DNA from: a virus
Lineage: Duplodnaviria > Caudoviricetes
Virus record (IMG/VR): IMGVR_UViG_2799113255_000001
Coordinates: 1-64,000 of that record
Direction: 5' to 3' (one strand)
DNA length: 64,000 nucleotides
Shown: one piece after another, positions 44,389 to 62,256 of the stretch
Position numbering within the stretch: the stretch's first letter is position 1
Layout: every line of letters begins with the position of its first letter
Notes under the pieces: model-generated
The model's database searches: none
The model's input: only the letters and a program-made list of their open reading frames with translations
What the model was told of the DNA's origin: nothing
Translations under genes and position numbers: made by a program

Positions 44389-46665
44389 TTATTCGTGGTG
44401 TCTCAGAGCCGGATCGAAAGGTTGTTCCACGGTCGTGGTACCTGGGTATAGGTACTCACAGATGCGGATCTGGATCTTCGATTCGATTGCCACGCCGTTT
44501 GATTGGACGTTCTCCATACCTGCGAACACCGCACCGGATACCGGCTCGTAGTAGCACGTGCAGTTGTACCCCGACACAGATCCGGCGTGACCGAACCAGT
44601 TTGCGATGTTGAAATACGCAGGGCCGTAACCGTAGTAAGACGGACCTTCGTACGGCCATACGTCCGACGAGTACACGGCGATGTTCTCGCGGAACGCGTG
44701 CATCTCGGGGCTTATACCCCATCCGTCGCGCATAGCCTGACCCCAGCGCTGTATGTTATCGATGGTTGACACCAAAGCCCCTGCGGACCCGACATACTCG
44801 GGATTGACCGCAGTCCAGTCTTGTAACCCGAAGATTCCCGGACCAAGCCCGCGACTGTAGGGTTCCGGCATATTCGGGCTATCTGGCCAAGATGTCTCGG
44901 TCAGCCCTAACGGAATCCAGATGTCTTCCTTGAAGATGTCTCTACACCGTCGACCGGTGGCGGCTTCGAGGATCTGACCTAACACGATCATTCCCGAGTT
45001 GTGGTACGCGAAGTTCGTTCCAGCGGGCCAAGTAACCGGGTGGCTCTTGATGATGTTCATCTGTGTAGCCACGGTGACCGGGAACGTGGGAAACAGGAGC
45101 ATGAAGACCCCGTAGGGGAACATGCCGATGCTTCCGGCCTGGAACTCAAACAACCCGTCGCGCATACCCAGAAGGTGCCGGATCTTGATGTTGTTTCCGT
45201 CCGGCATACCCGGTATCCACTTCTCTAGAGTGTCATCGAGAGAAAGGACGCCTTTGTCTACCTGCATCAGGATCGCTGTTCCGGTAAACGATTTGGTCAA
45301 GCTGCCGATACGGAAATGGTGGTTGAGCGACAACGGATACGAAGTGATGCCCGGTGACGCCGGGGACACCCCGTACGCTTTGGTGTAGCTGCCCTTGGGG
45401 CCGCTGATCGAAATCATCACGCCCGGTTGACCGTCTTCGGCCATACAGGTCGCCACGATGTTGTCGATCGCTGTCCGATCCTCCAACGACAACGCACCGT
45501 CTGTGAGAGTTCTGGTGGTTACCGCGTCGTACGGGGACGACTCAGCGCTACCCGAAACTGCTGTAGCCGTGAGGGTGTACGTCGAGTTGGGGTCTAGCCC
45601 AGCGAATGTGTAGGCAGGTGAGCCCTGGGGCGTGGGTGTGACCTTCACGCCGTTTTTGTAGAAGTTGTATCCGGTGACCGTTCCGGCGTCGGGTGGAAGC
45701 CCGTTGACCTGAACCTTGATTACCGTCTGGGTGACCTCGGTGACCGCGACGCTTACTCGGTGGTACTCGATACTTTCGGCGGTCCACTCGATTTTGGTGA
45801 ACCCGTCGCCGCCTTTACCAGCTGTCGCCACGGTGTTTCCGGCTCCCGCGCCTCCACCACCGCCGCCGAACATGCCGCCGTCTGCGCCGTTGCCTCCGGG
45901 GGCGAACCAGGCTCCAGCTCCACCGCCACCGCCAGCTCCCGCGTTGGGGATGATGGAGTTCGGGGGCTTGACTCCGGGTTTGACCGAGTCGGTTCCGCCA
46001 GCTCCACCGGTAACGGTGGTTGAGTTACCGCCCTTACCGCCTGGGGTCTTGGTGGTGTCCGAGGTGTACGGTCCACCCGCACCGCCGCCCGCTCCCGCGT
46101 TGTTGGCGTTGTTCGCACCGGGGTTGGTTACCGTGCTGGTTGCGTCGCCACCGGGGGAGCCGGGGTACACGACGACACCGGACATGCCGGTGATCGAGTA
46201 CGAGCCGCCCGCGCCTCCTGGGATGGTGAAAGGGGTAGAACCGACTGTGGTTGCACCCGTTGAGCCCTTCTTGCCGCCTTTAGCGGTTAGATTGACCCCG
46301 CCGCTGGAGAATACGGAGTCGCCTCCGTCTCCCTTGCCGCCTTTACCCTGGACGACGCTGTACGTAGCGCCCATCTCGGTAACCGGCACCCACGTCCGAT
46401 CGATGCGGCCACCGCCGCCTCCACCTGAGTTGGCGGTCCAAAGTCCTGTAGCCCCTTCGCCACCCGCCCCGCCAGCTGCTTGGAGTGTTACCCACGCGCC
46501 GGTAGCACCGTACGGGACCGGGTAGTTGGTCCGTTCGATGTTGTTTTCGGTGATCGGTGTGAACGCGTTCCATACGTCGGTGGGACCGATGCTTACTTTT
46601 GTGGCTTCTGTTGCTCCCGAGGACAATTTGGAGACGTCTGATGCTCCGACAGAGATCCCCGCCAC
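44389..46665 (-). CDS. Virion protein: Gly-rich + FN3-like + beta-lactamase/D-Ala-D-Ala carboxypeptidase domain
   Basis: GSLTK (SxxK), YHN and HAG motifs. Confidence 0.88.
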   Translation of the reverse strand: MAGISVGASDVSKLSSGATEATKVSIGPTDVWNAFTPITENNIERTNYPVPYGATGAWVTLQAAGGAGGEGATGLWTANSGGGGGGRIDRTWVPVTEMGATYSVVQGKGGKGDGGDSVFSSGGVNLTAKGGKKGSTGATTVGSTPFTIPGGAGGSYSITGMSGVVVYPGSPGGDATSTVTNPGANNANNAGAGGGAGGPYTSDTTKTPGGKGGNSTTVTGGAGGTDSVKPGVKPPNSIIPNAGAGGGGGAGAWFAPGGNGADGGMFGGGGGGAGAGNTVATAGKGGDGFTKIEWTAESIEYHRVSVAVTEVTQTVIKVQVNGLPPDAGTVTGYNFYKNGVKVTPTPQGSPAYTFAGLDPNSTYTLTATAVSGSAESSPYDAVTTRTLTDGALSLEDRTAIDNIVATCMAEDGQPGVMISISGPKGSYTKAYGVSPASPGITSYPLSLNHHFRIGSLTKSFTGTAILMQVDKGVLSLDDTLEKWIPGMPDGNNIKIRHLLGMRDGLFEFQAGSIGMFPYGVFMLLFPTFPVTVATQMNIIKSHPVTWPAGTNFAYHNSGMIVLGQILEAATGRRCRDIFKEDIWIPLGLTETSWPDSPNMPEPYSRGLGPGIFGLQDWTAVNPEYVGSAGALVSTIDNIQRWGQAMRDGWGISPEMHAFRENIAVYSSDVWPYEGPSYYGYGPAYFNIANWFGHAGSVSGYNCTCYYEPVSGAVFAGMENVQSNGVAIESKIQIRICEYLYPGTTTVEQPFDPALRHHE

Positions 46666-47222
46666 TACGGAGTCCTTACATAGACCGTCGTCGGATCTTT
46701 AGTGGTGATCGCTGTGTACTGCGCTTCGGTGCCCACCCACAAGGTGAGAGCGAGAGGACCGGCGTTGTTGGCACCTACGACGACAGCGGGTTTCCCGGTG
46801 ATGTCGGCCCAGGCGCTCGCCCCGGCAGGACCGGTGGGTCCTGCGGGTCCGGTTAGACCTGTGTCGCCCTTAGGGCCGGTCGGCCCGGCTGGGCCTATGT
46901 CGCCTTGCGGGCCTTTGATAGGAGCCTCGAACCAGGAAGATCCGTTGGATACGTAGAACTTTCCGGTATCCGCTACACCCCACACCTGGTTGGTATGTGA
47001 GCTAGCAGCGGGCAGTGACGCCAGGTTGGCTGCGGTGCCGTCGATAGACAGCCCGTCGCCCTTGGGGCCGGTAGGTCCAGTCGGTCCCGTGGGTCCGGTA
47101 GGACCGGCAGGACCTACGGGGCCGAGCGGTCCAGCGGGTCCGGGCGGGCCGGTTAGACCTGGAGATCCGGGGATAGAAAGCAGGCGTTCCCGGTAATTGT
47201 GTGGTTCGCCGATAACGCCCAT
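46665..47222 (-). CDS. Collagen-like fibre protein 2
   Basis: Gly-Pro-X repeats; C-terminal WVGTEAQY domain. Confidence 0.88.
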
Positions 47223-47237
47223 GCGGTAATCCCTTAG

Positions 47238-47945
47238 TCAGTTCTTGATTTCCACGGTTGCGGCTGCGTACGCCCAACCCGACGATCCGTCTGGCTGCGT
47301 AACGGCTCCATCCGTGGTGGTTGAATCCTTGGTATTCAGTAGGAGTGATCGGGAGCTTGACGGCCCTGCTACCGCTCGACGGGTGTATCCCGCTGGTGCA
47401 GAACTCCATCCGCTGCCGTTCAGGAAGGCGGAAGAGTGGAAATGCAGGATTATCGAAGTACCGTCTGTATGGTCGAGCGTGATGGCGGGTGCGGCGATGT
47501 TCACACCCTGACCGCCTACCGATGCGTGTCCACCGATCGGAGTCGTTGCGTTTTGTCCGCGCAGGACTACCGCGATCATCTGCTCACCCCACGTCCACGA
47601 ACCCGAGGTCGTGTTGGTTGCGGTGGCCTTGAACTGCGCAGTGGTTATGCATGATTGACCGGAGGTGGTGTTGGCGTTATCGATGTACGCCCAATCCGGG
47701 ACGGTTCCGCCTGCCGTTGGCTTGGTCGGTGCTGTGTTCTGAGCGTCGAACGCGGCCAACACAATCAGGTCTCCTACCTGGTGCGCTGGTATCGTCACAG
47801 ATCCGCTCGTGCTGGCGTTAGCACCGATGAATTGAACCGGTGTAGACGCTGACCAAACCTGGTTGGTGCCCAAGTACACGCTGAGCACACTCGTAGTCCC
47901 AAGTTTGAGACCGGCCAGGGCGGTTGATCCGAGATAAACCGCCAC
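47238..47945 (-). CDS. Putative fibre-tip/receptor-binding protein
   Basis: N-terminal VYLG repeats; Thr/Ser-rich, beta-strand-like body. Confidence 0.75.
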   Translation of the reverse strand: MAVYLGSTALAGLKLGTTSVLSVYLGTNQVWSASTPVQFIGANASTSGSVTIPAHQVGDLIVLAAFDAQNTAPTKPTAGGTVPDWAYIDNANTTSGQSCITTAQFKATATNTTSGSWTWGEQMIAVVLRGQNATTPIGGHASVGGQGVNIAAPAITLDHTDGTSIILHFHSSAFLNGSGWSSAPAGYTRRAVAGPSSSRSLLLNTKDSTTTDGAVTQPDGSSGWAYAAATVEIKN

Positions 47946-47953
47946 CGGGCCTC

Positions 47954-49258
47954 CTACGTTGTGAAATACAGGGTGTTCGCGTCTTTCGAGCCGAGAGCGG
48001 TGTACTGGGCTGCCGTTCCCACCCAGACGGTTAGCGATGTGGTCGTGCCGTTGTTAGAGCCGACGACCTTTCCGGTTCCCAACTTCGACATAGCGATAGC
48101 CGCCGAGTTGTTGATGTCGGTGTCCGTGATCGTCCCGTCCGCGATCTGCGTCGTGGTGACCGCACCACTGGCGATCTTGGCGGTGGTGACAGAACCATCG
48201 GTGGGTGTCCGGGTGTCGGACAGCCGAGAGTCGTTACCGATACAGACGGTGGAACTGGTAGTGCCCGTTGGTATGCGAGCGATAGCGAGCGTGCCCGCGT
48301 TCACGTCCGAGGCGTTGTGCGTGTGCGCCGTAGGCGTGCGAGCATCCGAGAGCCTGGAATCGTTTCCTTGGCATGCGGTGCCAGCTGTTGATCCGTAAGA
48401 CACGGCGAAAGTCCGGTTTGCGGATAGGTCACCGCCACCGGTAAGACCTGTTCCGGCTGAAACCGTGGTGGTCTTATCGGCTTTCAGTCCTATGTTGGTC
48501 GATACCGTCGTCGCAAAGTTGGGATCGTCGCCTAGTGCCGCTGCGAGTTCGTTAAGAGTGTCCAGCGTTCCGGGGGAGCCGTCGACCAACGCGGATACGG
48601 CGTTAGATACCGCCGTGTTGAGCGCTGCGGTGGTCACCTCTCCGGGAGGTCCCTGTGGGCCTACGTCTCCGGTGTCACCTTTGGGACCGGTCGGGCCGGT
48701 GTCCCCGGTATCTCCCTTGACACCTTGAGGACCCTGGTCGCCGGTATCACCCTTCGGACCCACGGGTCCTTGGGCTCCGGTGTCGCCCTTATCCCCTTTG
48801 GGACCAGTCGCTCCCGTAGCCCCGGTTGCACCTGTTGCTCCGGTCGCTCCCTGCGGCCCTTGCGGACCAGTTGGTCCTACCGGGCCTTGGAAGGGGATAC
48901 CGTCGCCGTCCGCAGGCCAGCCAGATCCGTTCCAGAAGTACAGAAGACCGTCTGCGATCACCAAGTAGGTGTCGCCCGTCGCTGCCGACGCGGGTAGATC
49001 GGCGTACGTCGGTACAGAGCCCGAAAGCTCTATGCCGGTGCCGTCTGCTCCAGCGGGTCCGGTCGCGCCAGTTGGTCCTTGAAGACCTGTATCGCCTTTG
49101 TCACCTTTAGGGCCAGCTGGCCCTTGGATACCGGTCTCTCCGGGGATGCCTTGTAATCCGGTATCGCCTTTGTCGCCCTTAGGTCCCTGGGCTCCCGGTT
49201 GTCCGGGAGTAGACAGGATGCGATCACCGATGTCTCCGAGAACTGATTCTATGATCAT
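47954..49258 (-). CDS. Collagen-like fibre protein 1
   Basis: Gly-X-Y repeats, [25 protein letters not shown] repeats, C-terminal WVGTAAQY domain. Confidence 0.9.
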
Positions 49259-50229
49259 CCGACTCTCGAAACCCTTCCGGCGTCTATACCTTCGCCGCCA
49301 GCGGGCTCACCGTCAGGCAGGAATACCAGCTGCCATAAGCAACGGTCCGCGATCTTGTCGGTCTCTTCCGATTCGACCTTGATGTGGGCCATCGAGCCTT
49401 CCAGCTCGAAATTCCAGATCGTTAACGGGTGCTTTCCGGGCTTGACGATGTCTACCTTGACGCTCTCGTACCCGTTCACCCCTGTAAGACCTGAGTCATC
49501 AACCGCCAGAGCGGGTTGTACGTCGTTTCCGAGCGCTCCGATGAACATCACCTGGTACGTGTGGGTCCAGTAGAAGTCCAAGTGGACGATGCTGAACACA
49601 CCGATAAGCGAGGCTACCGAGTTGAACAAGTTGACGATCATCGTTGACGTCACGTCGACGGCGAACGTGATCAACCCAACCTCGTCAAACGACTTGGTAG
49701 AGGTGATCTTCAGGACCAAGTTCAGGTTGTCGTGGATCGTGAAGTCGATATCGACGCCCAACAGATCCTCGAACGTGCCGAAAAAGCCGTTCAGTGTTGC
49801 GTTTACGGTGTTCACCAACTGCTCGGTAAGAACGTGACCGGCGTTGACGTTGAGATCTAGTTCCCACGTGGGGTACAGGCTGGAAGGCTGTACAAAGACG
49901 TTTCCAGCCCCGAGGGTAGGTAGGGCCTCCAGCGCGTCGGTGATGTCGCCAGAGAGGTTCTGGGGGTTCTCTACGACGTCGTTGTAGTCGATAGGGGCGG
50001 TCCACTGACCGCCGAAACCGAGCTTGTACGTACCGCCGTTGGCTCCGGTGACGGTGACCTTCTGGAGGGCGTTGTGCTCGCCTCCGGTCTGGAGTTCGAA
50101 GTACATTTGACCGGCTGGATAGTCGACCGGTTGCTTGTTCTCGTCCACCAGCTCGAAATTCCAGGCGAAATCCCTGCCCTTCCAAAGGACTAGCGTGCTG
50201 CCTTCTGGCCGTAGCCCGATATCGGACAT
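49255..50229 (-). CDS. Minor virion protein (L5 gp6-like)
   Basis: LVLWKGRDF and [10 protein letters not shown] motifs; position after TerS. Confidence 0.85.
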
Positions 50230-50368
50230 GGATCTCCTTGAAAGTTGTTCCGGGGGAGCGGAGCCGGTAACGCCAACAGCGGAGCAGTTGGCTCGGAGGC
50301 ACCAACTTCGTTGGATGCCGTCGGGGCTCGCGGCGAGAGGAGGCCGAGACTGACGCTCCCCCGGTGGA

Positions 50369-50839
50369 TCATGTGGTTTGTGCGCCTAGCACTTGCTTGA
50401 AGTGGTCGGCCATCGTCAGAACCTTGCCGCCTTCAGCGGTAGGCCCTGGGTTTCGTTCGATCTCCATCCGAACGCGACGGCGGTCACCTTCGGTGAGAAG
50501 AAGGGTGGACATCATCTGGTTCAGCACTTGGAGTTTCATCACGCCAAGCGGCTTCTTCTTGCCTTTGTTGTCACCCGATTGGTACACAGCGTTGAGTTCT
50601 TCGTTCAGCGCGTACATCGTCAGCCGAGCGAACTGCCAATCCGAGGGCTCGTAGTAGTTCGATTGAGCCGACTGTCTAATCGACTCGTAGAACTCGACTA
50701 CGAACGGGTGCGGGTTCTCAAGACCTAGATCGGGAACAGGTACCTTGCCGAGCGCTACCACCTTCTCGGTAGGGATCTCCTGCTCGTTCCGGCGAACTCG
50801 CTGATCTTCCCGCTTGGGAATTGGGCCTCTGGTACCGAT
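50369..50839 (-). CDS. Terminase small subunit (L5 gp5-like; start probably ATC 50839)
   Basis: YEPSDW and LLLTEGDRRRVRMEI motifs; frame extends to GTRGPIPKR. Confidence 0.85.
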   Translation of the reverse strand: MGTRGPIPKREDQRVRRNEQEIPTEKVVALGKVPVPDLGLENPHPFVVEFYESIRQSAQSNYYEPSDWQFARLTMYALNEELNAVYQSGDNKGKKKPLGVMKLQVLNQMMSTLLLTEGDRRRVRMEIERNPGPTAEGGKVLTMADHFKQVLGAQTT

Positions 50840-50888
50840 GATAAGCCTCCTGGGCGGTCAGGAAGCTCCTGGCTCCCTACGCAGTTAG

Positions 50889-51401
50889 TTACCTGCGATT
50901 TAGGTCAGACTTTTTGTGGCACGGGACACACATAGGGCGGTAGCGACTTGGGTCGGGCGAGAAGGGTCCGAGGTCGGATTGCTTTTCTCGTGGGCAGTCA
51001 TGCGTGTACGACCACTGTCTGGCTTCAGCCCCACATCTGCATTTGTGCTCAGAAGCCTTGCCCCGAGCCCTGTACACACGCTGGTGAGCTGTCCCGTAGC
51101 AGATGTCGTCCGACTTCCAGATAGGGTTGGCGGAACCAGACATAACGTTGTACTTGACGGTGTGCGGATCTCCGTGCCTACGCATCCGCGTCTCATGCTT
51201 GAGGCAAAGAGTGTTGTTGTGGGACATAGCTTCGGTGTGGCAACCCGCCACACAGCAATCACCTACAGGTGCGTGGTGGCGGGTCTTGTTAAGGGTTGTG
51301 AATTCCCTCCCCCTACGCTTCTGGTAGTAATGCCCTTCGCAGTAGGGGTTTATCCGGCTCCTGGCGGGTTTGTCGCAAAAATCTAGCGTGCAGTTGTCCA
51401 T
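50889..51401 (-). CDS. Free-standing HNH-type endonuclease with Zn fingers
   Basis: C..C..C..H repeats, AHQRV, PMCVPCH. Confidence 0.8.
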   Translation of the reverse strand: MDNCTLDFCDKPARSRINPYCEGHYYQKRRGREFTTLNKTRHHAPVGDCCVAGCHTEAMSHNNTLCLKHETRMRRHGDPHTVKYNVMSGSANPIWKSDDICYGTAHQRVYRARGKASEHKCRCGAEARQWSYTHDCPREKQSDLGPFSPDPSRYRPMCVPCHKKSDLNRR

Positions 51402-51489
51402 GAGTTTCCAATCGTGGTTGGGTTAACACCCCTCACGCGATAGCTAATCGCTAGGGGCTCTACCGATCCACGAATCAGCAGCCGTATAT

Positions 51490-51786
51490 TCATCTACGCC
51501 CTGGGTGGCGTTCTACAGGCCTGAGTCTTTTGGCGCGGAGCTCTCTTTTCCTAGAGTTACCCTCTTGAGAAGACTTCTTCGCATGACACGAAGTACACGA
51601 GGCTTGTAAGTTCTCGTCCGAGTGATCGTCACCACGAACGATGTGGTCGACGTCCGAGGCTGTTACGAGGCAGCCGAAGGACTCGATCTGACAGAGGTGG
51701 TTGTCTCTGTCGAGGATTCGACGTCTGATCTCACCCCAGTTGGGCGGCAGCCGAAGGTTCCGAGACGAACCGAACCAACCAGACAT
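51490..51786 (-). CDS. HNH endonuclease (packaging accessory)
   Basis: RILDRD..CQ..VDHI..DDH..NL..C..CH..K. Confidence 0.9.
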   Translation of the reverse strand: MSGWFGSSRNLRLPPNWGEIRRRILDRDNHLCQIESFGCLVTASDVDHIVRGDDHSDENLQASCTSCHAKKSSQEGNSRKRELRAKRLRPVERHPGRR

Positions 51787-52156
51787 CCGCCCTCCGAACG
51801 TAGTGAGGAGTGAGTGAGGTACGAAGTACCGAACGAACGACGAACGGAGTGAGGACCAGTGTCGACGGAGCCCGAAAGGGGCTCCGGAGACCGACCTCGG
51901 ACGCATCTCATGCGTCCTTCGGACTCCGGGTCCGCGACCCGGCCCGAGGGGGCCGGTCACGGCCCACCAACCGTAATTCCGTTACGTTAAGTAACTACAT
52001 TACGTTGGTATAACGTGAGGCCGAAGGCCGAACCGACGAGAAGAAGCCGGGGACTCGGCTTCGCCTCGTCCTATATAGAGAACAGTTAGTTCTCTTACCC
52101 TCTCATAGTGTAAGTAGGGGCGTTTTTTGGGTGCGAAGCGCTTTGACTGTCTATTG

Positions 52157-52167
52157 TTACCGATTCG
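52157..52167 (-). other. Possible joined cos site (CGAATCGGTAA)
   Basis: Lies between the divergent arms; resembles cluster A overhangs ending CGGTAA. Confidence 0.35.
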
Positions 52168-52419
52168 TTATGATATTCCAGGACTTTACATACGACCCGA
52201 ATGGGTGTTCGACTTCTAAACCCGTACACGATGGCTCCTCCGGATTACCGCCCGATCCTGGGGGCCGGGGGAGGGGTGTCCCCCCTGGGGTGCCGGGTGG
52301 GGGCAGCTGCGCTGCCGACCGTCCCATGCCATGCACGGTGGTGTGCACCGTGCTACCCACCCACGCTTACGTATGTGCATGCGTGTGTGCGTGGTGTCCA
52401 CATTCGTATGCACGCACCC

Positions 52420-52447
52420 TTGACATACGGCCTGTGTGTAGTAGAGT
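52420..52447 (+). promoter_or_regulatory. SigA promoter TTGACA-N16-TAGAGT with two operators
   Basis: -35 inside a stoperator; inverted near-match site at 52448-52461 covers the ATG. Confidence 0.75.
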
Positions 52448-52453
52448 GGTCGT

Positions 52454-52663
52454 ATGTCAAACACATGGAAGCAACTAGCCCTCGCTACACTCACCGTTGG
52501 TGCGTTCTGGGTAGGACTGCCCACTGCAGTAGAAGCAACAGCACACGCAGACCAATTGCCCGTATGCCAATACGAGGACGGCAATACGGACGGGAAACCG
52601 TGCAACTGGACCGACCCTGACACAGGCGCGGTGTACTACGTGACATCGGAGAACTACCGATAA
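52454..52663 (+). CDS. Small secreted protein, probably leaderless
   Basis: Signal peptide ending AHA-D, two Cys; own promoter and terminator. Confidence 0.85.
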   Translation: MSNTWKQLALATLTVGAFWVGLPTAVEATAHADQLPVCQYEDGNTDGKPCNWTDPDTGAVYYVTSENYR

Positions 52664-52682
52664 CCGGCAGCGCCCACCAAGA

Positions 52683-52705
52683 GCCCCCGCTACGGCGGGG
52701 GTTTT
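52683..52705 (+). terminator. Intrinsic terminator
   Basis: CCCCCGC-TACG-GCGGGGG-TTTT. Confidence 0.9.
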
Positions 52706-52720
52706 CTTTGTGCGTGGGAC

Positions 52721-52749
52721 TTGACATACGACCGTCGATGAGTTAGATT
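52721..52749 (+). promoter_or_regulatory. Early promoter TTGACA-N17-TAGATT
   Basis: Canonical spacing; -35 within an operator. Confidence 0.85.
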
Positions 52750-52892
52750 GTGGATACAACTTCAGAGCGGGGCAGAGCTAGGGGAACGCAGTTCCCCGAC
52801 GCCAAGAGCCAAAACCACTTATGTGGTGTTAGCGAGTCAAGTGAACCCATACGCCAGCGGGTGAGCGAGCGCATAGAGCCAAGCAACACGGC

Positions 52893-52921
52893 TTGACATA
52901 CGGCCCACAATCTGATAGTTT
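52893..52921 (+). promoter_or_regulatory. Early promoter TTGACA-N17-TAGTTT (Pleft-like)
   Basis: Canonical spacing; -35 within an operator. Confidence 0.85.
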
Positions 52922-52927
52922 ACAAAC

Positions 52928-53297
52928 ACAACTGAATAGCAAGGACCGGCCCCCTAGTGGGATGTCGCAGCCGTCGCAAACGGTGTGGTCCACAACAACC
53001 CGGTGAGAATCGGACGCTGCTACAGGCGACGCCAAGCGCACGCAGCACTACATACAGACAGCACGAGAGATCGCCAGCGAGCGTGGTTAGTAGATCGCGA
53101 TGACCTGGTGTTCACAAGCGAGTAGCGAGAGCTTGTGATGAAACGGCGTGCTAAAGGTTGGCCTACCTACGGCTGGTCTGGGTCTCAGACCTAAGAGACA
53201 AAACTACAGCCCGCAAGGGCAGTCACGGCAGGTTCGCCCTCTCGATATGACCGTAGAGGTTTGGTTTGACTCCAAACGTGGCACGCAAGACCTTTTT
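52928..53297 (+). ncRNA. Candidate structured ncRNA/long leader
   Basis: No + strand ORF in the track; many stems, GCAA tetraloop, tRNA-like 3' module. Confidence 0.6.
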
Positions 53298-53505
53298 ATT
53301 TACCCACGTACTTGACATACGACCCGAACGAAATTCGGGGCGTCCAAGCGCCGTGATCTTCGATCACAAGCGCACGGCCTAAGGAGACAACGATGTCCAC
53401 CAACCAGGTTCGTACCACCACCTACGCGTACATATACGGACGGGTGTACGTGTCACGCGGTAGTTCGTTCGTGCGGGTACGATAACACGATTAGGAGTCG
53501 TAGAA

Positions 53506-53808
53506 ATGACTGAGGTGTGGGAACGCAGGGCCACCTACGGTGACGGATCTTTAGTAAAGGTGGGTGACAACATCCGTTACCACCAGGCCCCAGGTGGACT
53601 AATGTCGCCGCCCGTCAAGCAGCTGCCGGATGGATCTAGCACGGTGTGGTGCCACGGAACCGCTGTGTTAATGCCTCGGTATGGAACGCAAGAGCGGAGA
53701 GCGCAAGCTACAGCTTTAGGCGTCGACGTTGATGAGGTCGTGTTGAAGTGCGATACCTGCGCGGGTCGTTACCACTTTATCTTCGGCCACGTTATCGAGA
53801 AACGATAA
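53506..53808 (+). CDS. Hypothetical early protein
   Basis: AGGAG RBS. Confidence 0.75.
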   Translation: MTEVWERRATYGDGSLVKVGDNIRYHQAPGGLMSPPVKQLPDGSSTVWCHGTAVLMPRYGTQERRAQATALGVDVDEVVLKCDTCAGRYHFIFGHVIEKR

Positions 53809-53937
53809 AAGGTATGAGCACGTTGATACACCTAGTGGTTGCCGGTGTGTTCGGTGTTGCAGCCGTCGCTGTCGCCACTAGAGGTTTGACGAGATACGAA
53901 CGCAGACACCCAACTACACGGGACTAGGAGGCACATC

Positions 53938-54060
53938 ATGACTGAAAAGGATCTAATCGCCCTCATCGAAGCTGAGGGAGAAGCCATCGAAGCCAACCCG
54001 GACGCCCCAATAACCGACGAAACCAAAGTCACTCGTGGACGCCCAGTCAAGGGCGAGTAA
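53938..54060 (+). CDS. 40-aa acidic peptide, absent from the ORF track
   Basis: AGGAGG RBS; MTEKDLIALIEAEGEAIEANPDAPITDETKVTRGRPVKGE. Confidence 0.7.
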   Translation: MTEKDLIALIEAEGEAIEANPDAPITDETKVTRGRPVKGE

Positions 54061-55122
54061 GGGGGAAAGACATGAGCGACGTAACGGACCGTATAGACAA
54101 GATAGACCAAATGCTGTTCGACGCTGGCGTAATGGTGCTTTCGGCGAAGACTGGGGCGCAGCGTAAGGCAGCTGACCGCAAGATCATGGACGCCCGTGTA
54201 GAGCTGATGAGACTGCGATCGAGGTTCGGATGAGCGACTCCGCAAAACCACCAAGCGACAAAGAAATTGACGACGAATTAATGCTCGCCATCTACGGGTA
54301 TGACCCCAACGATAATTACCCCGAGTGGGGTAACGAATCGATGCGTAAGGCATACCTGGCGGGTTGGGAGGACGGTCAACGTGTCTGATCCTTCAATCGA
54401 AGTCGCTAAGAAATGCTGGACGGGGTTCGCCGACGGGATGTTCACGCCGAACGATCCCGAATTCCTGGCACTACTCACCGCTACCCGTGAGATGGCTAAG
54501 ACGGTACAGGAACTACACAAACCTTTCAAGGTCTACCCGGACAACGAGATTGAACTGAGAAGGCGCCGATTAGGTCGGTCGCAACTAGCCCATCTACGTA
54601 CCGGAAAGGTGGAACTACCCCCGCAGATCAGGTGTGGCCACTGCTACGACGAAGACGGCGATCCTGTTGCGTGGCCCTGTGAGACCGCTAAACGGGTCTA
54701 CCCAAGTGAGGAACTGAATAAATGATCAGTGAATACAGAAGCGGATATCTGGCGCGGTCCGGTTCAACCTGGTATTGGGTCGGCAGTCACGTAACGAACT
54801 GTCGGTGCACTTGCACTTGGACACACGAGTTTCGAGACCCAAGATGCGTGGTGACCTGGTGATAGCAGCGGATGCATTGTTGAACCATCAATTTCGGCCC
54901 GTAAATCACGCCAGTATCGGTTCCGAGGACCACTGTGCCTGTGGGTTTCGGCCACGAGGTTGGGCGGAGTGGGTCTGGCACGTAGGGGAACTAGGACTAT
55001 GAGCGACAAAGCAATTGCGGACGTAATAGAGCGGCTAGAGGCGGATGAGAAACGCAGCACTGAACAGATCAACGAGTGCTACCAATTTGCCCACCGGTAC
55101 CCGAATGTTCCCGCGAACTGGG

Positions 55123-55218
55123 AAGCAGTGGCGGAATGTCGCGGCGAGCTGTTCGGTATCCGTAGATCCCTCTCCTATCTGCGCGAGGTGCAGTCATGAC
55201 CGATCCAGCAGTAGAGGC
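55123..55218 (+). repeat. 96-bp exact direct repeat, copy 2
   Basis: Identical to 1-96. Confidence 0.97.
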
Positions 55219-55450
55219 GGCGCGACGGGCGTGGCAAGCCGAGGGCTGGGGTGATGGGCCTTTGGCGATGAGCGAAGGCCACCTTGCGGAAGCCGCTGCC
55301 CGTGAGGCTTTGAGGCCGATACGGGAGAAGTGGGAAGAACTTCTAGGCCCATACGCCACGCGACTTGTGGACCCCGAAGCCACCGGGGCTATCAAGGTCT
55401 TAGAAGCCTTCGCCCCCTTGATTTTCACAACAGAGGAGTTGAACCAATGA
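55196..55450 (+). CDS. Hypothetical protein (MTDPAVEAA family)
   Basis: ATGA overlap; a truncated copy of its start lies at 74-103. Confidence 0.75.
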   Translation: MTDPAVEAARRAWQAEGWGDGPLAMSEGHLAEAAAREALRPIREKWEELLGPYATRLVDPEATGAIKVLEAFAPLIFTTEELNQ

Positions 55451-55776
55451 CAACTACACACGTCTATCCGCCACTCACCCCGGAAGATTTCGAAACACAG
55501 TACGACGAGAAGAACCGATACATGTTCACCGAGGATGAGAACGGTGACATGTACTACGCCTACGGGCATGACCGGGATAGTGAATTCGTAAGGCAGCTAA
55601 GGGAATACTGCATTGAAATCTACAGAAGCAGTCCCGATGACGCTGAGTTCAGCGAAGGGGATATAACGCATCTGTGGGCGGTAACCGTTGAGCCCGCCCC
55701 AGAGTGGCGATTCACCTGGCGGGACGTAACCGAGAGCACACCTGGTGCCTTCCCCATCTCTGTCGTGACCCTGTGA
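55447..55776 (+). CDS. Hypothetical protein
   Basis: GAGGAG RBS, ATGA overlap. Confidence 0.7.
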   Translation: MTTTHVYPPLTPEDFETQYDEKNRYMFTEDENGDMYYAYGHDRDSEFVRQLREYCIEIYRSSPDDAEFSEGDITHLWAVTVEPAPEWRFTWRDVTESTPGAFPISVVTL

Positions 55777-55792
55777 CAGAGGAGCTAGAGCG

Positions 55793-56134
55793 ATGAGTGA
55801 CGAACCTTCGGACGCGCAGAAGCTCATATCGGAAGTGGTTCGCAAGCACCGACTCTTGCCGGGAACCGTGACCGGCCCGCAGTACTGCTCATGCGTATGG
55901 GGTGGCCTCGATTACCCGGCGCACGTTGCCGCCGAGGTGGATAAAGCCCTTGGAGGACTCAACCGGACGTGGGCTGCTGTATTTCCAGACGGCTCCTACA
56001 TGACCCCGTACCACGAAGTGTGGAACTTCCACCCCAACAAGAGCGCTCGCGAACTGGCCGAAGGCGATGTAGCGGAATATGAAGACACCACCCTTAAGGC
56101 TCAATGGGTGTCTGGCTGGACGGTGACCGAATGA
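55793..56134 (+). CDS. Hypothetical protein
   Basis: RBS; its 3' end is duplicated at 130-152. Confidence 0.7.
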   Translation: MSDEPSDAQKLISEVVRKHRLLPGTVTGPQYCSCVWGGLDYPAHVAAEVDKALGGLNRTWAAVFPDGSYMTPYHEVWNFHPNKSARELAEGDVAEYEDTTLKAQWVSGWTVTE

Positions 56135-56478
56135 ATGAGCTTATAGACCGTGCTATCGAAGAGGTGTCGAAGGTTCGGTTGGGCATCAAGTCCCGAGATC
56201 GCTTCTGGACTAGCGACTATCGAGAAGTCTTTCCCCAACTCGCGGGGGTTGATTGGCAGCGAGAGGCGTGGCGCCTTTGGTGGGTCTCATGACTGACTAC
56301 CAAGACACGGGTAGCCGGCGGAAACCTACGGCATACACCGAAACGGGGGCCGCTGAGCGGGTGTGCCCGGACTGTAGTGCCCCAGAAGGACATCCCTGTA
56401 GATGGATAGCCATGGATGGGCAGGGGGATTTAGGGAAACCAAGGCATTGGCCGCATGAGACACGTTGGAGGAAATGAA

Positions 56479-56796
56479 ATGCGTGACGATATTCACCCTG
56501 GACCGCGCATCATCTCCGGTAAAGCGGAACTACCCTGCCTGAAACCGGAGCCCTGGATGATCCAGGCGTCCTGCGCCACCGCAGACCCGGACGCGTTTTT
56601 CCCCCATAAGCGTGGCGACGGTGATAGCGAGTCGATCACCGTGCAGTACCAATACGCCAAGAAGATATGCCGCTCATGCCCAGTCAGGGTTGAGTGTTTG
56701 ACCTACGCGATCGTCAACGACGAACGCGACGGGATCTACGGCGGCTTAGGCCCTCGTGAGCGCGCGAAGATCATGCGTAACAGGGAGGCAAGCTGA
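56479..56796 (+). CDS. whiB: WhiB-family regulator 1
   Basis: C..DPDAFF..AKKICRSCPVRVEC..GIYGG. Confidence 0.93.
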   Translation: MRDDIHPGPRIISGKAELPCLKPEPWMIQASCATADPDAFFPHKRGDGDSESITVQYQYAKKICRSCPVRVECLTYAIVNDERDGIYGGLGPRERAKIMRNREAS

Positions 56797-57110
56797 TGCC
56801 GCACTCAAGCCCTACCGACTGGATAGCCGGTGGAAGTGTCGCCGCAGACATCGTTGGATGCCTCACCGGTCTGGTCGCGGACCTGTCCTGGCAGGATAAA
56901 GCGGCGTGCCGTGGACTCCCTACGGAGTGGTGGTTCCCGGACCAAGGCGGCAGCCGGGAATGTAAGCGGGCCAAGGAAATCTGCCACGGCTGCCCAGTCA
57001 AACTCCAATGCCTCCAATTCGCGATAGAGGTACACGACCAGCACGGAATTTACGGGGAGCTGTCATTGAAGGACAGGCGCAGGTGGAACCAGGAAAGGAA
57101 AGCGGGCTAG
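56796..57110 (+). CDS. whiB: WhiB-family regulator 2
   Basis: AAC..AKEICHGCPVKLQC..GIYGE. Confidence 0.92.
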   Translation: MPHSSPTDWIAGGSVAADIVGCLTGLVADLSWQDKAACRGLPTEWWFPDQGGSRECKRAKEICHGCPVKLQCLQFAIEVHDQHGIYGELSLKDRRRWNQERKAG

Positions 57111-57148
57111 ACACCGCGAATGTCAGTGTATCGGAGGATAATTGAGGT

Positions 57149-57580
57149 ATGGGAATGACTGATTTACAGAACGTCCACGAGCGCATTGCGGGCAAGCGTA
57201 TAGCCTCCGTCGAGGCCGACGGTACGAGGCTGGTGCTAAACGATGGCACTGTGCTGCATCTCTACATGTCAGACAGTGACTGTTGTGCTTCCGCCGATGG
57301 GAAGTGGGTAATCCAGCCGGACGCGCTGGAGGCGATTATTACCGGCGTTCAGGTTACACCAGACGCGGATCGGAGCGGTTATGACGGTGACGGAAATACC
57401 AACTACGCCACCATCTCAATTCTGCACAACCAGAACCCCATTGCCCTTGCAGACTGCTATGCCAATGACGGTAATGGGGGCTACTACTTCTCCGTGCTAT
57501 CCCTCCGTGTTGTCATGCCCGGTGACGAAGATGACGTCAAGGTGGAAGTCCTGAACTCTGACTCCTCGTCCAGCGATTGA
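57149..57580 (+). CDS. Conserved phage protein
   Basis: SDCCA and GNGGYY motifs; own promoter. Confidence 0.75.
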   Translation: MGMTDLQNVHERIAGKRIASVEADGTRLVLNDGTVLHLYMSDSDCCASADGKWVIQPDALEAIITGVQVTPDADRSGYDGDGNTNYATISILHNQNPIALADCYANDGNGGYYFSVLSLRVVMPGDEDDVKVEVLNSDSSSSD

Positions 57581-57850
57581 GGAGGTAGTGAGAGTTGAGT
57601 GCTGAACCGCTGCAATGGGACCACAACCCAGATATTCGCGTCCCAAAGAATGGGTGCCGCGCCGAAGTTGACGGCGGTGCTTACATTCTGTTCAAGTACG
57701 GCGCTAGTTCGTGGCAGGTGCTTTTCAGCACTGGGTGGCATATACCCGATGAGGTCTATCTCGGCGACAGCGAATCAGACGCACTAGCCGCAGCAGAAGC
57801 TCACCATATCGCCATTAGGCAGAGAACGATCTACCGTCGAACGGGCAGGA

Positions 57851-58225
57851 GTGACGATGCCGCAGCGGATTCAGCGGAAGCGCACTAGGGGTTGGCGAAT
57901 GCCCGAGGGTGCTATCTACGTCGGGCGACCGAGCCAATGGGGCAACCCGTTTCGACCTGTTCTCGTCGGTGGCGAGTGGCTCATAGAGGATGACAACGGC
58001 GTCCAGTACGACGGGTTCGGGAGCAAGGTAAGCGCTATCGGTCGGTGCGTTGCGCTCTACCGGTCGCTCGATATGACGTTCATGACAGACGCAGACCTAG
58101 ACGAGTTCGTCGCGCCGCTACGGGGCCACGATCTCGCCTGCTGGTGCTCTCTCGATTCCCCTTGTCATGCAGACGTGCTGCTTGAACTCGCTAACGATCC
58201 ACCGTCGAACGGAGAAGCTTTGTGA
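57851..58225 (+). CDS. DUF4326-like protein
   Basis: YVGRPSQWGNPF..LRGHDLACWC..CHADVL. Confidence 0.88.
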   Translation: MTMPQRIQRKRTRGWRMPEGAIYVGRPSQWGNPFRPVLVGGEWLIEDDNGVQYDGFGSKVSAIGRCVALYRSLDMTFMTDADLDEFVAPLRGHDLACWCSLDSPCHADVLLELANDPPSNGEAL

Positions 58226-58364
58226 GCGAACTACGTAGAGCACTGTTGGTAGCCAAAGCGGAAGCGGCACTTATCCCCACCGGCCGACGGGCTGAGCTCG
58301 ACCGCAGATTCACTGCGGCCCAGAAGGCGGCACAGGCTCACGCCACGTACAGGAGGTCCGCTTA

Positions 58365-59042
58365 GTGTCCGTCTCCGACAGCTTCTTTCTCGATAAAGGC
58401 TCCCAACACAAGCTCCGTGAAGAGTTGGCCAGCATCCCCCGCATGATCGGGGAGCTGTCCGTCACCCTCACCCGCCAGGCTCGCATCCAGAGGCCAGGGT
58501 TGAGTATGTCCCGAAGGCCCAAGCCTGAGTCTCAGGTCCCCATCCATATCGGGGCACACAACGCCGCTGACGTACTGCACAACTGCCTAGGTACGTGGGT
58601 GAGGCTGGTATGCGAACAACGAGCGATCGTGTGGGATAAGGGCAACGACATCATCACGCTGGCCAAGTGGCTGCGAGTCAACATGATCGCCCTAGCCCTC
58701 ACTGAAGGTTCAGAAGAAGCGTACGAGGACATCAAAGCCGCTATCGATGACTGCTGGCGACAGATAGACATCCCCGCCGACGATGACATTGTGATCGACC
58801 GAGGACGAGTACATGAAGCGAACAAACACATCGTCACCGCCGACACCATCGAACCTATCGCCCGCCGGATAGGGGAGATGGGAAAGAAGCTGAATGCGCA
58901 GCGGGTGCACTCGCTTACCCGTGGTGGGCATCTGCGTCCAGTCTCTAGCGACCCGGACACGGGTAAGAAGTTCTACCGACTGGGGGATGTGCTGCACGCG
59001 CACAACAACTGCGAGAAACGAGACCGAAAGAAGGGCGCATGA
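58365..59042 (+). CDS. Conserved prophage protein with C-terminal HTH-like region
   Basis: LGTWVRLVCE and FYRLGDVL motifs. Confidence 0.75.
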   Translation: MSVSDSFFLDKGSQHKLREELASIPRMIGELSVTLTRQARIQRPGLSMSRRPKPESQVPIHIGAHNAADVLHNCLGTWVRLVCEQRAIVWDKGNDIITLAKWLRVNMIALALTEGSEEAYEDIKAAIDDCWRQIDIPADDDIVIDRGRVHEANKHIVTADTIEPIARRIGEMGKKLNAQRVHSLTRGGHLRPVSSDPDTGKKFYRLGDVLHAHNNCEKRDRKKGA

Positions 59043-60087
59043 GCGACGGACGCGGCATGTACATGAAGTACCGAGTTGAGCGGATGGACGGCAAGGATAT
59101 GGGGCCATGTTTCATCCTTGAATACAAGAAGGATCGCCACGCGCGGGTGGCACTTGCGGCGTATGCCGACGCGTGCGCCGAGGACAATCCTGGACTAGCC
59201 CAAGACCTGCGGTGGACGCTAGAGGAGCTGGAGCGGTGAGGGTCGGGACCTGTCCGAAGTGTAAGCACTTGGAAGGTCGACACATCCAGTCCACGTACTT
59301 CGATGAAGAGACGTGGACTGGCCGATTCGTGTACGCCAGGTGCGATTGTGGCTGCACCCACTACGTCGTAGTGGAGCCGGTCTAGTGTCGGCCCTCGACT
59401 GTGAGGGGAGTGACCTAGATCCTGGTTGGTGCTGCACCCATAGATGCGATTTCAGGGACCCTAGGCATCCGCACTGCTGGCAGAACTGTGACGAAGAAGA
59501 TTGCGCCGCCCCTGAGTGTGATTGGGTTGAGTAGTTCACGCTGGTCGCACATACTGCGCAGGCCAAGGTATCTCACGCATCTTCCACGCCTGCGTAGGGT
59601 TGGCCGCAGTGACCCAAACGATAGGCATATCGCGTCCGGGAACTACCCGAGTGGTAGTTAGACACTCAACTTCACCACCGGTTGCGGTGGTTACGTAGAC
59701 ACGCATTCTAGCTTCAATACCCATACGTCTAGCGTCGGTCTTGCCAAAAGATCTGTAAAGAAAAATCTATGCGACACCGCGTTATGGCAGTGCCTTATGG
59801 CAAGCCGCAAAGGGAGTGAAACTGATGAACGTATGGATAGTCTCTGCGCATCGGTCCTGGGGCGACAGGATTGAATACCACGGACACAGGGGGGATACCC
59901 ACCGCTGGATGGGCTGGACGCGACCCATACCCAAGGTGGGGGAAGTTATTGAAACTGAATTGAAGTCCGGACGGGCGGCCCGCTTTCGGATAGTTGAGGT
60001 TGAGCGCGGGTACGGCACGGATGATATGTGGTGGGCCACAACCTCGGACGCGCCCATTTATGGAGCGACGACGTAACTGCCTCCACC

Positions 60088-60116
60088 TTGCATAAGTATA
60101 TCGGTTCTGATATATT
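60088..60116 (+). promoter_or_regulatory. TA promoter TTGCAT-N17-TATATT with palindromic operator TATATC-N6-GATATA
   Basis: GTG start 6 nt after the -10 (leaderless). Confidence 0.8.
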
Positions 60117-60122
60117 AATGAG

Positions 60123-60455
60123 GTGACCGACGAAAAGCCTCTCCGCTGGATAGGTACCTCACTTGAGGACCTACGGGACTTCCCCGAAGCGGCACGGCAG
60201 GACGCCGGTTACCAACTGGATAGGGTTCAGCACGGCCTAGAGCCCCACGACTGGAAGCCAATGCCAACAGTCGGCAAGGGCTGCCGCGAGATACGCGTAC
60301 GCACCGAAGACGGCGCGTACCGTGTGTTCTACGTAGCCACCCTTGGGGATGTGGTGTTCGTACTGCACAGCTTCGTCAAGAAGTCACAGAAGACTTCCCA
60401 GCAAGACATCAACACCGGTAAGGCTCGATACAAGAAAGCGCAGGAGGAACTATGA
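60123..60455 (+). CDS. higB: RelE/HigB (Gp49-like) toxin
   Basis: WKPM..VG.G.REIR..YRVFY..VLHSFVKKSQKT. Confidence 0.9.
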   Translation: MTDEKPLRWIGTSLEDLRDFPEAARQDAGYQLDRVQHGLEPHDWKPMPTVGKGCREIRVRTEDGAYRVFYVATLGDVVFVLHSFVKKSQKTSQQDINTGKARYKKAQEEL

Positions 60456-60703
60456 GCGTATGGGACGACATCGCCGACACCCCGCGCGAAGCGGAGAACC
60501 TTCGCGTGCGGTCTGAGCTGATGATGGCAATCGAAAAGAAGATCAACGAGCGCGAATGGACCCAGGTCCAGGCCGCCGAAGCACTCGGACTGACCCAGCC
60601 TCGGGTGTCGGATCTGCTGCGCGGCAAGATCTCCAAGTTCTCCTTGGATGCTCTCGTGGACATCGCTTCCGGGTTGGATGTGCACGTGAAGGTGTGCGTC
60701 TGA
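60452..60703 (+). CDS. higA: XRE-HTH antitoxin
   Basis: WTQVQAAEALGLTQPRVSDL; downstream of and coupled to the toxin. Confidence 0.9.
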   Translation: MSVWDDIADTPREAENLRVRSELMMAIEKKINEREWTQVQAAEALGLTQPRVSDLLRGKISKFSLDALVDIASGLDVHVKVCV

Positions 60704-60788
60704 TTGCGACACGCCGACCAGGGGATATACCCCTTAACCGCTGTCAAGTAGTAAACTGCGCATAGGCGCGACTTACACCCATTCTTTT

Positions 60789-60823
60789 AAACCCCCATCG
60801 ACATTTGTTCGGTGGGGGTTTTT
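60789..60823. terminator. Intrinsic terminator
   Basis: AAACCCCCATCGA...TCGGTGGGGGTTTTT. Confidence 0.8.
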
Positions 60824-61865
60824 CTATGCCCAAACGGAGGTTCCCTTATGCCTCTGTCTCGTGTCCGCTGCTGCATCCCCTGTGGCCGTATCCGCTACGC
60901 CCCCTGCTCTACAGGGTGTCGAGTAGATCCCGAGAACGACCCAACAAGCTGGACAGAACAGGTGATTGTGAGCGCGCCGCAAGATTCGGGAGTATCCGAG
61001 TGAACACATTCTTTGCAGCGGCGATAGCGGTGACACTGGTGCTGATGCTGATCATCTGGTTAGGCCCACGAGTTCTGCTGTGGCTGCTGAACCGGTTCAT
61101 CGACCGCTACAACAAGGTGGTCAACGAGTACAACGAGCGCCAGGAAGCCCGCCACGCGGAAATCCGCACTGCGCTAGACCAACTGCAACAGGCTGCCCAA
61201 GCGAGGCGAGATGCTTGATCGATTCTTCGCAGCACTAGCCGGCGCCATGGCCCCTCTACTCGTGGCCATGTGTGAGCGCATCGCGAACAGGAAGATCCCT
61301 GACGACACCGTGCCGAAGTTCATGGACGGCCTACTGGACATCGCCCGCGACGGCGTTGACCGCGCAGTCGGTGTGGTGCAGACGTCCGCTGACGGTATCG
61401 CCGGTAGCGCGGAAGCTGAACTAGGCCAGCTCGGCACGGAGATCAGGGGAGTGGTCAAAGCGGCCAATCCCATCGACATTCTCGGCAGCCTGTTCGGGCG
61501 GCGAGGATGAGCATCCCGGAAGGCTTTTGGCTCGGCCTCGTCGCCGTTCCGGCCGTTGTCGCATTTGTGTCGGTGGCCGTCGGATTGGCCGCTGTCGCGA
61601 TGAGCCTGCATTCCAAGTATGCAGGTAGCGCCTACAAGCTGGTACCCCGCAAGTTCGATAGCCATGCGGGCATGGCGGGAATTGTGGCCTGCGCTAAGTG
61701 GGTCCGCTACATGTGGATTCCCGGATTCCATGTCGTCATATGCCGCACGTCAATCGCGGGGCGAGAGCCCGGTCGGTCGGTCCACGCCCGCGTGAAGTAC
61801 GCCATCGTCGATGCGCTTGAGCGCGACGACAGCTGACTTGCTCTAGAGGTCTCCCCGTTCTACTA

Positions 61866-62218: not shown

Positions 62219-62256
62219 ACACCGTGACTTACGCTGTAGCTCGGTAAAATTGAGGG

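Follow-up and report, generated by a model that had tools for sequence, protein, structure and literature searches.

A covarying tRNA-like element in the early non-coding RNA unit of a cluster MabJ mycobacteriophage and its relatives

What is made from the DNA that separates the cos-proximal end from the first early gene of the phage in IMG/VR record IMGVR_UViG_2799113255_000001, and which part of the product is conserved? The window analysed here is the first 64 kb (64,000 nucleotides) of this 96.8-kb virus record, and the unit in question lies on its early-gene (+) strand, to which coordinates refer unless stated otherwise. A preliminary description, made from the sequence alone, had proposed that positions 52750-53297 encode one or more large structured non-coding RNAs, transcribed from tandem promoters under repressor control and tRNA-like at the 3′ end. 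Our analysis narrowed this mosaic RNA of about 500 nt to a discrete tRNA-like element (TLE), which is 63 nt long, or about 100 nt in the L5 group, and lies in the window at 53222..53284. The unit corresponds, in the cluster-A-like MabJ phages of Mycobacterium abscessus, to the non-coding Pleft RNA that cluster A phages make early.

The TLE begins with a 6-bp acceptor stem, GUCACG/CGUGGC (53222-53227 paired with 53277-53282). Where the D arm would be stands the unpaired GCAGGTTCGC (53228-53237), with the invariant GCAGGUUCGC. It is followed by a middle stem of 5 bp with a 12-nt loop (53238-53242 paired with 53255-53259), a T stem of 5 bp (53260-53264 paired with 53272-53276), a T loop of 7 nt (53265-53271) and a trailing AC (53283-53284). 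The T loop reads TTTGACT here and TTCGACT in most relatives, a C-to-U change relative to their T arm UUUGG-UUCGACU-CCAAA. The stacking of the T arm on the acceptor and the order of acceptor, D region, middle arm and T arm are those of a canonical tRNA. Unlike one, the element has a 6-bp acceptor, a middle-arm loop of 9-12 nt and no D stem, and positions 55 and 56 of its T loop tolerate change. It also differs from phage tRNA genes in lying within a promoter-proximal leader, away from the genuine tRNA-Ser at 44226-44311.

That tRNA-Ser was the only call made by ARAGORN in the window; the TLE was not called, and there were no calls in the loci of six relatives. Rfam at the gathering threshold gave no match in the whole window. 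With lax settings (E 10), applied to the region and its relatives, the small element was unmatched by any family, tRNA, tmRNA and YrlA included, so the search proposed in the preliminary description yielded no RNA family for the element or the region apart from terminator-like matches at 52644-52712. The TLE lacks the D stem, 7-nt anticodon loop and canonical T loop that define a tRNA (RF00005), and it has neither the G3:U70 pair nor the tag reading frame of a tmRNA. What it has is the layout of the small form described here: 6-bp acceptor, GCAGGUUCGC, hairpin, T arm and AC. A covariance model built from the relatives, R1, matched the window once, at 53218-53288 (86.3 bits, E 1e-18), although its seed alignment includes the window sequence itself together with the elements of Kampy and Remus, the latter two first found by position and BLAST. 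A blind scan for T-arm plus acceptor geometry on both strands of the window returned five matches, namely the TLE, the tRNA-Ser and three others that we take to be chance.

Covariation was examined in 16 distinct sequences from MabJ, subcluster A4 (Kampy), an A1-type contig, A15 (Remus) and metagenomic phages. In this set 95.5% of cells were paired, against 68.7% in shuffles, none of 500 of which reached 95.5%; 15 of the 16 pairs had changed on both sides with pairing kept. As part of the set had been chosen for pairing, selection controls were run. Sliding the partner strand lowered paired cells to 33-48%. Helix 2, which was not used for sequence selection, covaries too, for example as CCUCU/AGAGG versus CCCUU/AAGGG within MabJ. 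The 37 pattern matches in IMG/VR were bimodal, 13 of them with 6/6 acceptor and at least 4/5 T-stem pairs and the other 24 with at most 3/6 acceptor pairs. In a pattern scan of bacterial genomes none of 120 had the fold among the matches listed, which serves as a null control only and says nothing of distribution. The covariation called for in the preliminary description is thus found within the TLE, and together with the single R1 match it bears out the T-arm plus acceptor 3′ end proposed there. All three helices appear to be maintained by compensatory change, and the element to be the part of the RNA that is under selection.

A decayed tRNA gene would offer a different account, in which the locus is neutral spacer around repressor sites and promoters near cos and the look-alike is a dying gene. 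The drift of the T loop within MabJ (TTCGACT, TTCAACT, TCCGATT, TTTGACT), the missing D arm and 7-nt anticodon loop, and the mosaic body with its shuffle-like stability all fit such decay. A neutral remnant would not, however, retain 6/6 and 5/5 pairing; the compensatory changes keep three helices where the primary sequence differs almost everywhere, and the position is constant in several hundred records from three host genera. We consider decay very unlikely. Two further ideas were tried and rejected. An origin from an attP core does not suit an element in which both acceptor strands are present and covarying, and attP is some 31 kb distant, near 22200. The loop of the TLE is partly operator-like in MabJ and Kampy, which suggested mimicry of the operator; this was dismissed because the loop consensus is unchanged in phages with different operators.

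The element recurs at the equivalent genomic place, with the same architecture and other helix sequences, in mycobacteriophage Kampy (50294-50353; acceptor GGACAG/CUGUCC, T stem CCAGC/GCUGG) and in Gordonia phage Remus (acceptor GAACUG/CAGUUC, T stem CCAGA/UCUGG). In both phages tandem operator-promoters likewise lie upstream. Further copies of the small architecture were found in IMG/VR phage contigs. By BLAST the Kampy variant occurs in 156 phage records and the A1-type variant (Lockley, Solon, U2, JC27 and others) in 271, so that the same position is held in several hundred phage records across three host genera. Nearly all records with variants of the element lack any annotation of it. A still smaller variant was present in five IMG/VR contigs (L032, L038, L055, L056 and L058), with acceptor GCGCCC/GGGCGC and AUAGGUCGGC; it has no middle hairpin, its T arm is followed by ACUAGG, and R1 scores it at 29-33 bits.

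Upstream of the element the transcript is of a different character. Two promoters of the sigma-A type, each followed at its predicted start by the same motif, precede it: P2 (TTGACA-17-TAGATT, 52721..52749, start near 52756), overlapping the operator at 52720-52733, and P3 (TTGACA-17-TAGTTT, 52893..52921, start near 52928), overlapping the operator at 52892-52905. The predicted RNAs are accordingly about 530 nt from P2 and 360 nt from P3, both running to 53284. The first of them opens with a P2 leader of about 170 nt (52756..52927) that begins ACAACUUCAGAGC, followed by the variable body (52941..53221), which in the window is of type I. The comparison set consisted of ten MabJ genomes, five GenBank prophages and five IMG/VR contigs. 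All ten have the arrangement P1-P2-P3-stoperator, a stoperator being here an operator copy without a -10 box. Among them the RNA between P3 and the stoperator is a mosaic of four partly related body types. Type I is common only to the window, prophiT49-3 and three IMG/VR contigs, and the four types have only short words in common, such as ACAACUGAAUARCAA, which is in all of them. The only module common to all body types is window 53224-53284, at 95-97% identity.

The predicted folding energy of the P3 RNA (371 nt) was no better than that of shuffled sequences (z -0.18), while the P2 leader folded modestly better than its shuffles (z -2.18). All the individual stems listed in the preliminary description are present at their positions, and the large structured RNA into which it assembled them is not supported, since the body is mosaic, its energy is shuffle-like, and covariation is untestable inside type I with only about 5 variable positions among its relatives. 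The hairpins of the P2 leader (52777-52835) are missing in several relatives. The 86 nt at 52836-52921, that is about 57 nt before the P3 -35 box and P3 itself, are 99-100% identical among relatives.

Nor does the region appear to encode protein. Every frame of 52756-53392 contains 6-10 stops, the longest open stretch is 73 codons, and the codon-position GC asymmetry seen in real genes of the phage is absent. The five longest open reading frames (ORFs) matched no PHROG or Pfam family, whereas flanking ORFs do match PHROGs. These results agree with the earlier reading that no credible + strand ORF exists at 52750-53392. The opposite proposal, that at least one of the ORFs of 37-70 codons is translated, can point to three + strand ORFs (48, 48 and 55 codons), to one of 70 codons on the - strand, and to annotated genes of BWHA-1 and EagleEye that run over the element. 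We regard it as extremely improbable: besides lacking family matches and codon-position bias, the ORFs have no Shine-Dalgarno sequence visible by eye and are not conserved among body types, and Kampy proteomics gave no peptides from the equivalent region. In prophiT49-3 the annotated genes 54 and 55 lie in a 490-bp insertion after the conserved module and not under the RNA. BWHA-1 gene 54 (L004, 3479-3754) and EagleEye gene 97 (L016, 823-1230), both annotated as hypothetical protein, start in or cross the TLE and are probably mis-calls. The element could enter RNA family databases and phage annotation, where some annotators now call spurious genes at this place.

Comparison with cluster A places the unit. 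L5, D29 and StarStuff make an extremely abundant and stable non-coding RNA of about 500 nt from Pleft, which is processed to species of 100-400 nt (Dedrick et al. 2017, PMC5712189). About 90% of L5 transcripts end at 51140-51190; the L5 Pleft region is toxic to M. smegmatis and intact clones were not recovered in E. coli; and the deletions 51195-51619 and 51195-51407 were unobtainable, whereas deletion 51407-51619 was viable (PMC5712189). The promoter-distal third of the Pleft RNA is required for lytic growth. The MabJ unit lies where that RNA does, with cos on one side and the first early gene on the other (Dedrick et al. 2017, PMC5712189; Halleran et al. 2015, PMC4626039). Like the Pleft RNA it has tandem promoters with a repressor operator overlapping the -35 box, the operator recurring genome-wide as stoperators; a few hundred non-coding bases without a conserved ORF, followed by a stoperator; and a tRNA-like element at its 3′ end. 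The MabJ body has no detectable sequence similarity to that of L5, and toxicity and partial essentiality are known from L5 only (PMC5712189).

At the right end of L5 we found a tRNA-like element of about 94 nt (51133-51226), whose T arm is perfect and whose acceptor stem, GGGUAG/CUACCC, is followed by A-C. It spans, and so coincides with, the mapped RNA ends at 51140-51190; both non-viable deletions cut it and the viable one spares it. Against Rfam tRNA-Sec it scored 22 bits, below the cut-off of 47. Elements of the L5 type, at 72-82% identity, occur in 85 records (L5, D29, RedRock and Twister groups). RNAalifold folded 12 of them into a four-way cloverleaf in which 14 of 33 pairs were compensatory, with T-stem variants UCG/CGA, CGC/GCG, CCA/UGG, UGC/GCA and UGG/CCA. 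The D29 element lies at 47979-48084, a position that fits the 'sharp peak immediately upstream of gene 89' reported in a 2025 preprint. In Kampy the equivalent region, within which its element falls, accounts for up to 51% of phage reads, with a 5′ read pile-up 'near 50,400'. Unlike the cloverleaf of about 100 nt in the L5 group, MabJ has the 63-nt form shared with A4, A1-type and A15 phages. R1 scores L5-type elements at just 11-25 bits, so the two size classes resemble each other in kind and in position without their common descent being shown. A second tRNA-like element was seen in L5, in the intergenic region of genes 88 and 89 directly upstream of a stoperator (L006, 128-214, - strand; L5 50427-50513); its sub-threshold Rfam matches were to tRNA-Sec (19.5 bits) and mascRNA (17 bits).

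In the literature searched no mention of a tRNA-like element in the Pleft RNA was found, and nothing there seems to describe a tRNA-like end that covaries and occurs, in two size classes, in several hundred genomes of the cluster A type. An unexplained early RNA of L5 and D29 that is abundant, toxic and partly essential gains in this way a small testable element. The element covaries, it coincides in L5 with both the RNA end and the segment refractory to deletion, and it has the look of a tRNA-enzyme substrate, or of a mimic of one. Therapeutic mycobacteriophages and genetic tools for mycobacteria, moreover, come mainly from cluster A phages and their relatives in M. abscessus.

What might such an end do? 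We suggest, with moderate confidence, that the TLE acts in cis, defining and protecting the end of a long-lived RNA and uncoupling that RNA from the early mRNA. In the lysogen the immunity repressor would sit on the operators overlapping the -35 boxes of P2 and P3 and keep the unit silent. On induction or infection host sigma-A polymerase would start near 52756 and 52928, at strong promoters, giving untranslated RNAs of about 530 and 360 nt that end in the TLE. Because the body is interchangeable and the 3′ element covaries, the body would be replaceable and the TLE the functional core, a domain that forms and stabilises the 3′ end. A stacked acceptor and T-arm helix is a determinant for RNase P, RNase Z and the CCA-adding enzyme, and blocks 3′ exonucleases. 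We infer that host enzymes of tRNA maturation would recognise this helix, RNase P acting on the 5′ side and RNase Z or exonucleases on the 3′ side, with CCA possibly added after the A-C, and that the fold would resist 3′ exonucleases. The outcome would be a discrete, long-lived and very abundant small RNA, separated from an early mRNA that would consist of the minority of read-through transcripts passing the stoperator at 53311. The role in cis is favoured because of these properties of the helix and because there are precedents: in MALAT1/mascRNA and the 3′ tRNA-like structures of plant viruses, a tRNA-like 3′ end defines or protects a longer RNA through tRNA-processing enzymes. These are eukaryotic and have no sequence relationship to the TLE, so they serve as analogy only.

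Several observations weigh against this proposal. The acceptor has 6 bp and not 7, the D arm is absent and the T loop is non-canonical (TTTGACT here, TCCGATT in L010, 6 nt in Kampy), features because of which recognition by RNase P and RNase Z is not assured; the silence of both ARAGORN and Rfam belongs here as well. In most MabJ relatives ORFs follow directly after the element without a terminator, so that it would sit within a longer transcript. The essentiality seen in L5 could stem from a function of the segment at the level of DNA. The RNA data for MabJ consist of assembled contigs from three small RNA libraries of a single study, in which the relative present carries body type II; levels, starts and strand cannot be read from contigs, DNA may be present in the libraries, and uncovered stretches are uninformative. 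In run X8 a contig extends 40 nt beyond the element, and in run X4 the contig with the element reaches from 153 nt upstream of it into the early genes.

On the other side, a 609-nt contig from run X5 starts in the P2 region, takes in P3 and the body, and has its far end at 53282, where the 3′ side of the element ends too, which gives a weak hint of an RNA end there. In X4 the late genes had a contig depth of 17, the piece from P1 to P2 one of 2588, position 52880 a total of about 24,900, and the contig with the element and early genes 906; contig depth cannot rank parts of a transcript, and these values are a hint that fits an abundant leader. The wastewater run X1 gave short pieces only.

The T run that the preliminary description placed after the tRNA-like end does exist (53293-53301), but it is not a canonical terminator: it begins 10 nt past the acceptor stem, and the terminator scan called nothing on the + strand after the RNA. 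It belongs to a conserved A/T-rich piece that ends with the stoperator (53288..53324), and in most relatives the segment with the T run is found hundreds of bases farther on, immediately ahead of the stoperator. In Kampy (L027, about 900-990, - strand) a GGCAUGG/CCAUGCC stem, noted by eye, closes about 100 nt and is followed by a run of six U and then the stoperator. MabJ has a similar U run ahead of its stoperator, without a stem of the Kampy type.

A rival explanation looks beyond the RNA itself. Produced in very large amounts from the outset of infection, the TLE might work in trans as a mimic of tRNA or tmRNA, titrating or redirecting a host factor that handles tRNA, and this would be the essential and toxic activity; candidate targets are RNase P, the CCA-adding enzyme, SmpB, a modification enzyme, or a tRNA-cleaving toxin or defence nuclease. 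Toxicity of the L5 region in M. smegmatis and failure to recover intact clones in E. coli (PMC5712189), two distant hosts, fit a target that is universal. Contacts that depend on sequence, and not on a stable fold alone, are suggested by the invariant GCAGGUUCGC and by the loop consensus GAYAUSACY. The layout also matches the tRNA-like domain of tmRNA (RF00023), with an acceptor, a stem-less D loop containing GGUU(U)CG, a helix at the place of the anticodon stem, a T arm and A-C: the Mycolicibacterium tmRNA has 5′ GGGGCUG-AACGGUUUCGAC and 3′ ...CAGCUCC-AC, with the stem-less D loop GGUUUCGAC. This likeness was, however, noted by eye and involves 6-7 bases. The acceptor of tmRNA has 7 bp and not 6, the TLE has no mRNA-like domain and no pseudoknots, without G3:U70 it would lack the alanine identity of tmRNA, and neither tmRNA, tRNA nor YrlA models match even at E 10. 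Any binding partner is putative, and the mimic is compatible with the role in cis rather than exclusive of it. We hold it to be possible and rather unlikely; if true, the element would capture a host enzyme at the onset of infection and would be more than the end of an RNA. The widest form of the proposal is a tentative speculation of about the same standing, namely that TLEs of both size classes form one family throughout cluster A, in more than 500 actinophage genomes, and are the essential, toxic part of the Pleft RNA that captures a host tRNA-handling enzyme.

YrlA, a Y RNA bound by Ro60/Rsr (RF02553), is likewise a non-coding RNA of actinobacterial phages that mimics tRNA, and it occurs in some mycobacteriophages (Chen et al. 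2014, PMC4201824). Unlike the TLE it is circularly arranged and closed by a Ro-binding stem. The record contains no Ro60 (TROVE) gene and RF02553 did not match at E 10, so an RNA of this type is unlikely here.

Antitermination, suggested in the preliminary description together with a decoy role, both of them conjectural, concerns the 5′ end. The motif ACAACTNNANARC is found exactly at both predicted starts, 52756 and 52928, as had been noted, and nowhere else in the 64 kb (0.17 expected); both starts fall on ACAACU. The P3 RNA opens with ACAACUGAAUAGC (52928..52940), whose core CAACUGAAUAG, at +2, shares 9 of 11 bases, including AUA, with the mycobacterial rrn boxC-region word GAACUCAAUAG. The rrn word given in the preliminary description is genuine: a Mycolicibacterium genome has GAGAACTCAATAG some 130 nt ahead of its 16S rRNA. 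The resemblance to it is partial. That leader region is the NusA-binding boxC of M. tuberculosis, in which AUA is reported to be critical for binding to the NusA KH domains (PMC2724277). The motif could recruit NusA at P2 and P3 in the manner of a boxC-type leader, so that polymerase reads on through terminators, and past repressor still in its way, along the 20 kb of the early arm; or the abundant RNA could instead sequester NusA. The 11-mer, presumably the exact NusA ligand, was not found in the literature searched.

An exact 13-nt match in EagleEye (GAACTCAATAGTG; L016, 411-423), a 23-nt boxA-plus-boxC-like match with two differences in Adzzy (TGTTTGAGAACTAAATAGTGGTG; L022, about 581-603) and the retention of ACAACUGAAUARCAA in all four MabJ body types speak for such a signal. 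The rrn boxB-boxA-boxC, lambda nut and HK022 put leaders are, similarly, promoter-proximal RNA signals. Unlike them, the window has a partial boxC-like word at +1 without boxA or boxB, and no N-like or Q-like protein was identified; full boxA-plus-boxC-like words are confined to Adzzy and EagleEye. The P2 copy has no AUA, and body types II and IV carry the motif internally and not at the start. Most cluster A leaders examined did not match, the 8 sense matches comparing with a shuffle mean of 2.7 and maximum of 8. A leader of this kind would also leave the tRNA-like element unexplained. We find it doubtful, and continue to favour the action of the TLE in cis.

The control system around the unit is of the cluster A type. 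MabJ stoperators have been published, with consensus cTTgACATACGaCC (PMC9934374), as befits the cluster-A-like phage that the preliminary description had supposed. The operator word CTTGACATACG has 15 copies in the window against 0.9 expected, nearly all on the transcribed strand. Four operator copies are on the + strand here, at 52419, 52720, 52892 and 53311, the last being the stoperator (53311-53324). Both P2 and P3 have their -35 boxes inside the published operator word, which upholds the idea of tandem promoters under repressor control. The immunity repressor gene (3295-3762) matched PDB 7R6R (E 1e-23), a solved cluster A immunity repressor to which its product is homologous. P1 and P2 were found by the promoter scan, and the -10 box of P3 fell under its E. 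coli-style cut-off. It is kept in all ten relatives (as TAAGTT in L009) and fits the mycobacterial -10 pattern, TANNNT.

P1 (TTGACA-16-TAGAGT, 52420..52447) lies within the operator at 52419-52432, next to an inverted operator copy on the - strand (52448-52461). Its mRNA would be leaderless, because the predicted start coincides with the ATG of the next ORF, which encodes 69 aa (52454..52663, PHROG 12613), has a signal-peptide-like N-terminus by eye, and lies upstream of and outside the RNA unit. A GC-rich hairpin with a U run resembling an intrinsic terminator (52683..52708) separates this gene from the unit; the lax Rfam matches at 52644-52712 were to terminator parts of several families. 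The P1 block as a whole (52419-52708; inverted operators, leaderless ORF, hairpin and U run) is kept in all MabJ relatives. On the cos side of the unit, the HNH and small-terminase genes extend on the - strand up to about 51960. Downstream, the first early ORF (53393..53485, 30 aa, PHROG 1445) is preceded by the Shine-Dalgarno sequence AAGGAG and followed by another early ORF at 53506-53808.

The window itself is composite. Positions 1-96 are repeated exactly at 55123-55218, and 1-22200 together with 40000-55400 match two halves of M. abscessus prophages in circularly permuted order, the closest relatives being the MabJ prophages prophiT49-3, BWHA-1, T46-3, GD43A-4 and GD24-3. Because of the repeat and the permuted matches, positions 1-55122 are, as judged from sequence, one complete circle of a cluster MabJ phage. 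The DNA past this point (55219-64000) belongs to a different and unrelated phage, similar to phiGD22-1 at 99% identity over about 7 kb. The junction between the two is either an assembly join of co-resident phages or a genuine hybrid.

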